Shown: piece after piece, positions 9,001-12,000 of the stretch
How positions within the stretch are numbered: the stretch's first letter is position 1
Layout of the letters: every line of letters begins with the position of its first letter
Virus genome (UHGV): UHGV-0153540
Origin: a virus
Direction: 5' to 3' (one strand)
Length of the DNA: 18,580 nt
Made by a program: the position numbers

Positions 9001-12000
9001 GCTCGACGCTTTCTTGTTCGTAACTTCGATTTTGGTCAATCACCTTGTTTTCCTCGCACGTTCTCTAAGCCACCGGATATCCCACAGGTGAGCCGTGTAG
9101 TTGAAGGTTTTTACGTCAGATTCTTTTGGGATTGGCTTGGGTTTATTTCTGGAGCGTTTCGTTGGAAGGTATTTGCAGTTTTCGCAGATTATGTCGGTGA
9201 AACTTCGTCGCTGTCGTCTCATGCCTCCCTGTCTCCCCATCGCGCTTTCCATTCGAGAGCCAGTCGCGCTTCGTCTGACCACTTAACGCCACGCTCTGTA
9301 CCGAATGCCTGTATAAGCTCTAATAGCTCCGCAAATTCGCTTACACGCATCCTGCTGGTTGACTGGCCTATTACCACAAAGCCATTCCCGGCAAGGTTAG
9401 GAACAACGTCCTGCTGCTTTAATGCTGCGGTAAACACACACTTCCAGCTTTCTGCATCCAGCCAGCGCCCATGCCATTCAACCTGACGAGAGACGTCACC
9501 AAGGCAAGCCCAAAGCTTTCGATTCTGGTCTAAGCTGCGGTTGCGTTCCTGAATGCTTACTACGATTGGTTTGGTTGGGTCTGGAAGGATTTGCTGGATA
9601 GCTTGAATGGCGTTCTGCTGATGGATGGGGCTTCTTAGTTCAAATGTTAGTTTCCTCATCACCCTTAATCCTCTCGAAGTTCTTCTCGAAGTTTTTGGTG
9701 TCGAACACTGACCACCGACCATTATGAATGGCGTATGCACAGGTCTTGTTTTCGTCCTGATAAACTACCCTTACCTTGCGATAAAACCGTGGCTTAATCT
9801 CTCTGAATATTTGCTCGCTCATGCTCACTCCTTCACTTTAAATCCAGACTCCGGATTATTCTGTTGCGCTGAAACTCATTGTTGAGTCTGAACAACCGCC
9901 GAAGAACACGGTCACGCGGATAGCGTCGTGCGGCAGGTGAATGCTCATACAACTCATCAAGCGGCAAACTGGACGATGAACGATACCGATACCAACGCGC
10001 CAACTCTTCACGAAAATTAGCCCTGACAAGCTCAGCTATCGTACTCATTTCTTAAATCCTCCAATTACTCTCCCCCAAATAAAAAGGCCTGCGATTACCA
10101 GCAGGCCTTTATCTTTTTTTAACACGCTTTCGAGTCCTTTTAGATTTTTCCTTAAGATATTCCGCAAGTTTATCCTCATCATTATTAAATTGAGATAAAA
10201 GCTCATGCTCGCAATTAAGTGCTTTACTCGCATAAGTTCCATATAGTTTCTTTCTTGCTAGTGCTGCTATGAATGCTGCATCTTCTTTGCTATCGAAATA
10301 CCCTAACGATATTGTCTTATTTTTATAACCAACATAAGACTTCCACCTGCCAGTTGTCTTATCCCAAGACACTCCAATCGCACCGGATGTGTTTAACCTA
10401 TTCCCTACAATGTTTCTTGCATTCTGCTCCTCTGTTGCCAGTCTTAGATTTGAAATCCTATTGTCAAGTCTGTTCCCATTTACATGATCAATAAACTTAG
10501 GAGGCCATTTTTTGTATACATAGAACCAAGCAAGTCTATGCGCATAATACAAAACATTATTTATGCTAATGCATATATAACCACCACTAACACCTCCAGC
10601 AATACTACCTTTTACTCTTACTACTGAATTTGTTTTTAGCCATTTAAATATTCCTGTTTCTGAGTCATATGATAATGTTGACAGAAGCTCATCGTGATCA
10701 ATTAGTTTTTTTATTCGCATAAAGAATATACTTAATAATATATACAGTAAGAACCATTAGTAACGATAACCCTGCTATCAGCTCAGTGATGTAGATGGCC
10801 ATTTAATACTCCGTCACGTTTTCCTGTCGCCACGCCTCGTCATATTCCGATTTCGGCATATTGGCGATGTAGCTATATGGCGATCCTGATTCAAGTTGCA
10901 GGAACTGGTGCGATTGCTCGTCAAGGAACAACGGGACACCACCTTCCCAACCTTCGCCGTTACGTTGTTTTTCAAGCATCAAAACAGATGCAGGAGACGC
11001 CAGTAGCTGTTCGTCCTTCTCTGACATCTTTTCACCACTCTGAACTCTCTGTAACGCTCTCTCGCGAGCCTTGTTACGCCAGATGATGAAAAGGTTGTCT
11101 GTCAGGTCTGTTATCGCTCCAGAGCCTTTTACGTCCATTTTCCCGGTTGGTTTTTCTTCGCTGTCTCCTTTTCGCGAGTGAGTAACGAGAATGACGTGGG
11201 AGTTTGTTTTGTTTTTGAAGTCGCAAATCGAGTCAACAAACGCCTTCTGCCCGTTATAGTCATCGTCGCCTATGCCACATTTCATCAGGCTGTCGATGAT
11301 GAATAACTGGATCCCGTATCGGCGGCGAGCGTAGTCGAATATTTCGATCAGCCTGTCGGCTTTCGCCGTTCCGGTCAGGCCAAACACCCAAAGTCTTTCG
11401 TCATAAAATTTAAATGCAGAGTCAATTTCCAGCACTGGCGGCATCTTGCAGCACGTCGCCTGACGGGTAAGGCGCTTAAGGAGAATACCAGGCTTCAGCT
11501 CAAGTGACGCGATGCACGTCTTCACACCCTGACGCATTGCCTCAAGTGCCATATGCCCGACAACCTCCGTTTTTCCGTGACCGTTCACCCCATTGACCAG
11601 CGTCAACTCTGCCTCACGGAACTGGAATTTATCTGCCAGAGATTCCCACGGTGGATTAAACAGATACTGCTGCTTGCCGTAGAAAGCGTTGATAGTGTCC
11701 TGGTAAAACTCTCGCGCGCTGTAGAGTTCTTCAGGATCGAAGTAGGATGCCGTGCCGATGTACTGCCAGATTTCATCCTCGGTAACACCGTTCATCAGGC
11801 ATTCGTTGATGTCTTTGTACGGCAGAGTAACAAGACGGCAACGATGTTCACCGAGTCGGCTTGCGATTTCCCTTGCGGCTTCACGACCAACATCATCAAC
11901 GTCCATCGAGATGAATATTTCCTCAAACCTGTCGAGGTTGTGATACTCAAACTCAATCCACTGTTGCTTAGCGCCTTTCCCGCCACCAAACGGCACGGAT

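Follow-up and report, generated by a model that had tools for sequence, protein, structure and literature searches.

An HNH-AP2 endonuclease cassette inserted in lambdoid ninA at the foot of the tR2 terminator, a probable free-standing homing endonuclease gene

A 665-bp cassette inside ninA

The virus genome UHGV-0153540, a stretch of 18,580 nucleotides analysed here at its full length (the window), is that of a highly mosaic lambdoid phage or prophage, the early-right operon of which runs on the minus strand and contains a gene for a 203-residue HNH-AP2 endonuclease (HNH#2; 10109..10720). Base-level comparison of the junctions with intact relatives shows that this gene lies in a 665-bp cassette (∼10106..10770, minus strand) that is a precise insertion inside the 26–30-codon lambdoid gene ninA, of which intact, empty-site alleles exist. 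The left flank is a ninA 5′ stub (10771..10802, minus strand; the ATG plus 29 nt, MAIYITELIAG...) that is identical to phage 24B, lambda and ∼100 other loci and is presumed to be the left half of the target site. The right flank, identified by its match to intact ninA, is the 3′ remnant of the gene (10045..10105, minus strand; …GLLVIAGLFIWGRVIGGFKK*), which is cut off from its start codon, holds the terminator tR2, and ends in a TGA that shares bases with the start codon of the DUF7301 gene that follows (ATGA). The cassette comprises the tail of a short open reading frame (ORF), described below, and the HNH-AP2 gene. Its right end lies 3 nt past the HNH stop, the junction being ambiguous by 3 nt (AGG). 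Insertion took place 32 nt after the ninA ATG, only 1 nt short of a hairpin that matches the lambda tR2 hairpin exactly.

Phage 24B has no HNH gene and an annotated 30-codon ninA (product MTIYITELVTGLLVIAGLFIWGRGIGGFKK), the first 32 nt of which are the start of the short ORF of the window and the last 61 nt of which, hairpin included, are the window sequence that follows the HNH stop. The intact junction, …GAGCTTGTAACAGG|CCTGCTGGTAATCGCAGGCC…, is represented in the window by …GAGCTGATAGCAGG|GTTATCG… on the left and …AAAAGATAAAGG|CCTGCTGG… on the right. Lambda also carries an intact ninA, with an identical hairpin and an ATG that overlaps the ren stop. Three near-isogenic empty sites (L081, L005 and L112) match the primase-helicase gene of the window at 98–99% identity exactly to the left junction and resume the match at the right junction; hence these loci lack exactly the 665 bp. 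An earlier note, made from the window sequence alone, had placed the gene between the replication genes and the terminator. The order is correct, but the gene is not simply between them, since it lies inside ninA, which itself contains the terminator. The relatives without the insert that the note had envisaged for comparison were found in 24B, lambda and L081, in all of which the HNH#2 site is empty.

The GC content of the cassette is 34.0%, compared with 46.6% for the window and 50.9% and 49.4% for the two flanks. Every other 665-nt sliding window of the 18.6 kb has a higher value, in agreement with the AT-rich islet that had been described there. The HNH ORF has its own start and stop in a frame that differs from that of ninA. 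Around the cassette, no group I or group II intron or other Rfam family was detected at gathering score, the sub-threshold matches being driven by the terminator.

The same 32-nt ninA stub precedes other terminator hairpins (for example, GGGGCTATTTACACAGTAGCCCC) in eight loci (L031, L034, L052, L057, L061, L070, L092 and L120). The switch to the alternative hairpin occurs there at the exact CAGG| position of the cassette insertion and the ORF stays open into the new sequence. As judged from these sequences, the CAGG| position in ninA is a general mosaic breakpoint. The gene is unannotated in the lambda RefSeq record (NC_001416, ∼40567–40647; locus L253) and in most E. coli prophage annotations.

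The chimeric mini-ORF and the terminator

The short ORF (NinA′; 10698..10802, minus strand) has 34 codons, of which the first ∼11–12 are those of ninA and the last 22, hydrophobic or basic, are derived from the cassette. Its ATG directly follows the TAA of the primase-helicase gene, and it overlaps the HNH gene by 23 nt in another frame, its stop lying 20 nt past the HNH ATG. Because the start is shared with ninA and the remainder of that gene resumes past the HNH stop, the mini-ORF is recognisable as the 5′ end of a decapitated ninA, lengthened by cassette codons, a chimera and not a NinA orthologue, and the terminator as that of lambda, tR2. Intact NinA matches the NinA family phrog_5907 over positions 1–26 (E = 1.4e-17) and the mini-ORF over positions 1–12 only (E = 0.0018). 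The mini-ORF has 34 codons in 45 of 48 copies. The coordinates and TAAATG start that had been given for it are right; the suggestion that it may be a chance ORF is not, as it has the ATG, the Shine-Dalgarno sequence and the first 11–12 codons of ninA. The HK022 record lists it as HK022_56 (hypothetical), an annotation that can now be corrected to a decapitated ninA. In hydrophobicity, the cassette-derived tail exceeds 98.4% of open shuffles, with a joint probability of ∼0.004 of being both open and hydrophobic in what was a post-hoc test. The tail could recreate a peptide like NinA, or be no more than the product of a T-rich composition plus chance.

The intrinsic terminator (10074..10110, minus strand) consists of GGCCTGCTGGTAATCGCAGGCC followed by TTTTTATTT and is identical to the lambda sequence at 40.6 kb. 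Described beforehand as tR2-like, it is more than that, with an identical hairpin that is placed, relative to the ninA ATG, as in lambda. The hairpin (10083–10110) has a 10-bp stem, an 8-nt loop and a following T-run, and folds with −17.4 to −18.7 kcal/mol. The stem has been lengthened from 8 to 10 bp by the terminal AAAGG of the cassette, and a single nucleotide lies between the HNH TAA and the GGCC stem. The A-rich end of the cassette (AAAAAAAGATAAAGG; 10083–10120, plus strand) places a T-run after the hairpin on the opposite strand too, and the tR2 hairpin scores as a terminator in both directions.

The HNH-AP2 endonuclease

HNH#2 is predicted, from its sequence and a structure model, to be an intact HNH_3 plus AP2 nuclease with its catalytic residues and fold preserved. 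It is composed of an N-terminal β domain resembling that of I-HmuI (the HNH nicking endonuclease of phage SPO1), an HNH core (D78-H79...N100), an AP2 domain (∼residues 114–161) and a basic, helical C-terminal tail. The Pfam HNH_3 profile is covered in full by residues 58–102 with 57.8 bits (cut-off 24.8), and phrog_99 (HNH endonuclease) matches with E = 3e-72. Residues H61, D78, H79, N87, N91 and N103 are invariant over 58 homologues and N100 nearly so, and HNH#2 has all of them; the AP2 profile is matched by all 58 family members at E ≤ 0.01. The structure model, with a predicted local distance difference test score (pLDDT) of 88.7, confirms the AP2 fold as a three-stranded sheet packed on a helix that superimposes on solved AP2 domains. 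The protein has the catalytic His, the metal-binding Asp and Asn, and the ββα-metal fold of HNH nucleases. D78, H79 and N100 align with the D-H...N residues of I-HmuI, which are active-site residues of that enzyme.

A second HNH-AP2 gene of the window (HNH#1; 6385–6897) encodes a protein of 170 residues that scores 65.3 bits with HNH_3 and 35.1 bits with AP2. Pairwise alignment gave 40% identity between the two proteins over 161 residues (E = 1e-30), so that HNH#2 is indeed, as the earlier note had it, a second, diverged HNH-AP2 gene with a 203-codon ORF at the expected place. Domain searches found HNH_3 in both proteins as anticipated, while AP2 exceeded its cut-off in HNH#1 only and was confirmed in HNH#2 by the modelled fold. 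The label NUMOD-like for the N-terminus is not borne out: no NUMOD family matched HNH#1 or HNH#2 at E ≤ 10, or any of the 58 family members, the only likeness being a structural one, between the N-terminal half and I-HmuI.

Codons 3–5 of the HNH gene and the 3′ end of the mini-ORF share a frameshift-prone run of seven A residues (10706..10712, minus strand). One copy (L137) has eight, which breaks the HNH frame; this length change may reflect a mutational on/off hotspot or a sequencing error. Fusion of the mini-ORF to the HNH protein by frameshifting at this run was considered and rejected: HNH is in the +1 frame with respect to the mini-ORF, a canonical slippery site is lacking, and L137, the one copy in which the run differs in length, has a broken HNH gene and not a fused one.

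Distribution and a flanking marker

The module made up of the split ninA and the cassette (10065–10802) was found behind the toprim primase-helicase gene, the DnaB-like P of HK022 and the lambda-type ren of the Shiga toxin (Stx) phage PA28. At least eight different, unrelated upstream sequences occur among 50 copies collected by an anchor inside the HNH gene, and all of these copies have the ninA 3′ part at 697 nt from the ninA ATG. Intact ninA is likewise a universal linker, with an identical 32-nt stub after at least seven unrelated genes. Within the 5′ stub, the window carries a G at position −5 from the insertion (minus strand), which changes ninA codon 10 from Thr to Ala. After de-duplication, this G is present in 16 of 18 occupied sites and 2 of 76 empty sites, and within each of seven upstream contexts the occupied sites mostly have G and the empty sites mostly A. 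Since the marker tracks the cassette across contexts, co-conversion during its moves between backgrounds appears to cover less than the 32-nt stub.

Copies of the cassette are 98–99% identical to each other. Among phage records, 19 fall at 95–99% and the remainder below 60%, and a collection of 5.8 billion proteins yielded one 99% cluster with 521 members and no intermediates. High identity without intermediates points to a recent spread. The cassette is carried by ∼126 of 5,426 complete E. coli genomes, 1,956 of which match at least the ninA 3′/tR2 segment, and the species representatives of GTDB contain a single true copy, in E. coli. The HNH ORF is full length in 40 of the 48 readable copies, and most of the others run off contig ends.

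The left flanks of L155 and L139 are not ninA and were examined as possible alternative insertion sites; they are really secondary insertions, of IS66-family and IS3-family (IS629-like OrfA) elements, in the mini-ORF or leader of otherwise intact prophage cassettes. The 62% relative P0004 was likewise discarded as a diverged orthologue, being a recombinant of HNH#2 with another HNH-AP2 gene. In P0004 (L128:2919-3516, Logan SRR10380363 contig), residues 1 to ∼65 and the upstream ninA stub and mini-ORF are identical to the cassette, and the sequence switches at the conserved AHRLAWF motif to another HNH-AP2 gene that abuts rusA, with tR2, the ninA 3′ part and the intervening nin genes deleted. 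Recombination between paralogous endonuclease genes has thus made a natural nin-type deletion.

A probable free-standing homing endonuclease gene

We propose, as the probable explanation, that the cassette is a minimal 665-bp free-standing HNH-AP2 homing endonuclease gene (HEG) that has inserted in ninA on the 5′ side of the tR2 hairpin, and that its start, which lacks a Shine-Dalgarno sequence, is fed by the signals of ninA. Its presence and absence are precise, with an empty site; it occupies the same site in different backgrounds together with a flanking marker; and neither intron nor intein accompanies it. When carrier and cassette-free phages infect one cell together, or a phage encounters a prophage, the enzyme would cut the contiguous ninA/tR2 DNA of a cassette-free genome, its AP2 domain reading the GC-rich hairpin region. 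Carriers would be immune because the insertion destroys the ninA-tR2 recognition site, and repair from the carrier would copy in the cassette with very short co-conversion tracts.

Expression in this scheme would depend on the borrowed start. The ninA ATG abuts the preceding stop codon or overlaps with it. Its Shine-Dalgarno sequence has a free energy (ΔG) of −6.1 kcal/mol or lower in each of the seven unrelated contexts, the 10th percentile of the background being −5.9. In the window, the TAA of the primase-helicase gene abuts the ninA ATG (TAAATG), and the Shine-Dalgarno sequence (GGAG; ΔG −6.1) lies inside the last codons of that gene. The lambda NinA start was 'not weak' in a reporter study (PMC4824070). 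The HNH ATG, by comparison with a background median of −2.5, reaches only −0.9 and so lacks a Shine-Dalgarno sequence, from which low-level translation would follow; its leader is AU-rich and unstructured (z = +1.4). Lying upstream of tR2, the HNH gene would belong to the pR replication transcript and be transcribed with the replication genes. Given the mini-ORF stop 20 nt past the HNH ATG and the unstructured leader, the most likely source of the low-level translation would be re-initiation at that stop by ribosomes from the ninA start, or Shine-Dalgarno-independent initiation on the AU-rich leader. Homing endonucleases are usually under tight expression, and low-level translation of HNH#2 fits this pattern.

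Several points weigh against the HEG reading. Cleavage and homing are activities that we infer for HNH#2, and its AP2 score of 32.6 bits is just under the Pfam cut-off of 33.3. Another possible means of moving the module is ordinary recombination inside the conserved ninA/tR2 linker. The copies share recent common ancestry, so that the marker association counts sequences and not independent events. Decay is evident in some copies: L139 and L155 carry insertion sequences, L137 has lost the HNH frame through its A8 run, and the annotation is split in strain MS 196-1. A search for diverged copies for a comparison of nonsynonymous and synonymous rates (dN/dS) in the mini-ORF found every copy at 98–99% identity and the next relatives at 62% or less; selection on the mini-ORF is thus inseparable from the identity of the cassette as a whole.

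The strongest alternative takes up the point about ordinary recombination and treats the HNH gene as a passenger, possibly inactive, in a mosaic module spread between the conserved ninA stub and tR2 without homing. Nearly all lambdoid phages conserve these two boundary sequences, which stand behind at least seven unrelated genes; the change to the alternative hairpins falls on the same CAGG| position; and lambdoid genomes are extremely mosaic, with no single phage record covering more than 38% of the window; the G marker is, moreover, absent from two occupied sites and present in two empty ones. However, the shared flanks measure just 32 nt (left) and ∼41 nt (right). These are very short stretches for recombination without stimulation to have put the cassette in at least eight contexts at 98–99% identity. 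Catalytic residues that are all intact, an ORF kept at full length in most readable copies and an architecture that is that of known HEGs also speak against a passenger, and we regard passive spread as unlikely. Still less probable is a domesticated or regulatory role, in which the cassette would benefit the phage by excluding cassette-free lambdoid competitors or by altering tR2 read-through, with NinA′ perhaps replacing NinA: the HNH stop 1 nt from the tR2 stem, the reporter effect on tR2 described below, the lengthened stem and a mini-ORF tail that is open and hydrophobic, like native NinA, beyond composition (in the post-hoc test) speak for it, but the cassette is in only ∼6% of the genomes that match the ninA/tR2 segment, its copies decay, ribosome occupancy at the HNH stop may be too low to affect tR2 given an HNH start without a Shine-Dalgarno sequence, NinA is non-essential and has no known function (nin region; PMC8022706), and placement next to a terminator does not characterise the protein family (see below).

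The HEG reading agrees with what is known of related elements. The combination of HNH and AP2 is a recognised HEG family according to passages of PMC10448857 that cite Magnani, Sjolander & Hake (2004). Like the 'IPA-HNH' HEGs of ICP1-like phages (Barth et al. 2023, PMC10448857), HNH#2 has an N-terminal HNH (His-Me finger) domain and a C-terminal AP2 domain, and is free-standing, phage-borne, sporadic and located at a boundary of genetic exchange. The ICP1 proteins differ in having no direct match to Pfam HNH_3, whereas the HNH#2 clade matches the canonical profile. I-HmuI (PDB 1u3e) resembles HNH#2 in the structure of its N-terminal half, although the sequence similarity is marginal (E = 0.39), and it is encoded by a group I intron and has another C-terminal DNA-binding region, unlike HNH#2 with its AP2 domain and no detectable intron. 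HK97 gp74-type proteins, in the passages of PMC12315714 that cite Kala et al. (2014), are also HNH nucleases of a lambdoid phage, but are described there as terminase-adjacent, conserved components of cos cleavage; HNH#2 lies in the early-right operon, is sporadic and of foreign composition, and has an AP2 domain.

The closest behavioural parallels are in T-even-type phages. SegF reportedly spreads by 'intronless homing', an account said to go back to Belle and colleagues in 2002, and MobE is said to split nrdA in phage Aeh1, as Friedrich and colleagues are credited with describing in 2007. In HEGs of this type, spread depends on the repair of double-strand breaks, in which flanking markers are co-converted, and a host gene can be split by the insertion. 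As with SegF and MobE, the window has a stand-alone endonuclease gene between or within conserved phage genes; those enzymes, however, are GIY-YIG proteins or belong to a different HNH family, and the gene split here is a terminator-containing mini-gene of 26–30 codons, only the 5′ half of which would stay translated, with a new cassette-encoded tail. The element thus belongs to the known family of HNH-AP2 free-standing HEGs and behaves like the T-even intronless homing elements. Many records already name HNH#2 as an HNH or homing endonuclease. The searchable literature gave no description of a HEG insertion within ninA at the foot of tR2, of the chimeric origin of the mini-ORF or of the short co-conversion marker. 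The cassette provides a base-resolved, naturally replicated example of a free-standing HEG in temperate lambdoid and Stx phages, and since filled (HK022) and empty (lambda) alleles exist in laboratory phages, homing is directly testable with standard strains.

A possible effect on tR2

The insertion places a mobile element at the foot of one of the most used model terminators. Lambda tR2 is located 30 bp after the NinA AUG (PMC4824070) and is efficient when early in a coding region (Li et al., PMC4824070). In reporter constructs, its efficiency fell from ∼90% to under 10% with a translated ORF ending 5 bp upstream, and full efficiency required more than 27 nt (Li et al., PMC4824070). The flanks of the window are the lambda ninA start, with the hairpin ∼30 nt after its AUG in lambda, and the identical tR2 hairpin. 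In lambda this hairpin is 30 nt inside a 26-codon ORF, whereas in the window it stands 1 nt after a 203-codon ORF. With only this nucleotide between the HNH TAA and the GGCC stem, the geometry of tR2 shifts from the early-in-ORF to the just-after-ORF case.

An effect of the cassette on tR2 may follow. One possibility, which we put forward with considerable doubt, is that the cassette rewires tR2 such that HNH translation gates N-independent read-through into the nin genes and Q, and endonuclease synthesis is tied to translation of the replication genes. The chain would run from the primase-helicase stop through the NinA′ mini-ORF to the HNH gene without its own Shine-Dalgarno sequence and would hold if ribosomes reach the HNH stop, with the hydrophobic tail perhaps restoring a NinA-like peptide; this part, too, is tentative and on balance doubtful. 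As a matter of speculation, Stx phages with the cassette may differ in early-to-late read-through and hence in Q and the timing of Shiga-toxin expression.

The second HNH-AP2 gene and the surrounding operon

HNH#1 lies in an insertion block of its own (704 bp; 6381..7084, minus strand), defined by comparison with HK75. The block replaces 6 nt of HK75 between the pR′ −10 hexamer (CATAAT) and an HK75-type tR′ hairpin and is common to HK629 only, HK75 representing the empty site. The HNH#1 stop is 4 nt before the terminator homology resumes, which parallels HNH#2 at tR2. As the two genes occupy different sites, each with relatives that lack the insert (24B, lambda and L081 for HNH#2; HK75 for HNH#1, with HK629 filled), they are independent insertions, in accord with the two invasion events that had been suggested. 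Both cassettes of the window end 3–4 nt before a pre-existing terminator, which raised the idea that HNH-AP2 HEGs home generally to the 5′ foot of terminators. This was rejected, a terminator-like site following 4 of 77 diverse family genes and 14 of 456 control ORFs (Fisher p = 0.31) under a strict hairpin rule that also missed the imperfect tR′ hairpin after HNH#1.

The HNH#1 block has a terminator-like hairpin of its own near 7018–7043. A 60-codon ORF upstream of and overlapping the HNH#1 start (6894–7076, minus strand) has no Shine-Dalgarno sequence (ΔG +1.3) and no PHROG or Pfam match. Since it extends over the early-transcribed region and terminator downstream of pR′, this ORF is unlikely to be a gene.

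In order, the window encodes a replication initiator with an HTH_36 domain (12791–13591), followed by the Toprim/DnaB-type primase-helicase (10803..12683, minus strand; Pfam Toprim_2, AAA_25 and DnaB_C) and by the split ninA. The DUF7301 gene next downstream of ninA (9833..10048, minus strand) has a strong Shine-Dalgarno sequence of its own (GGAGG), and the order then continues with NinB, NinG, a phosphatase, Q (7092–7610), HNH#1 and the lysis genes. On the plus strand, the early-left operon is marked by a match to the Rfam family Lambda_thermo, the thermoregulator element of cIII, at 18408–18466 (88.5 bits).

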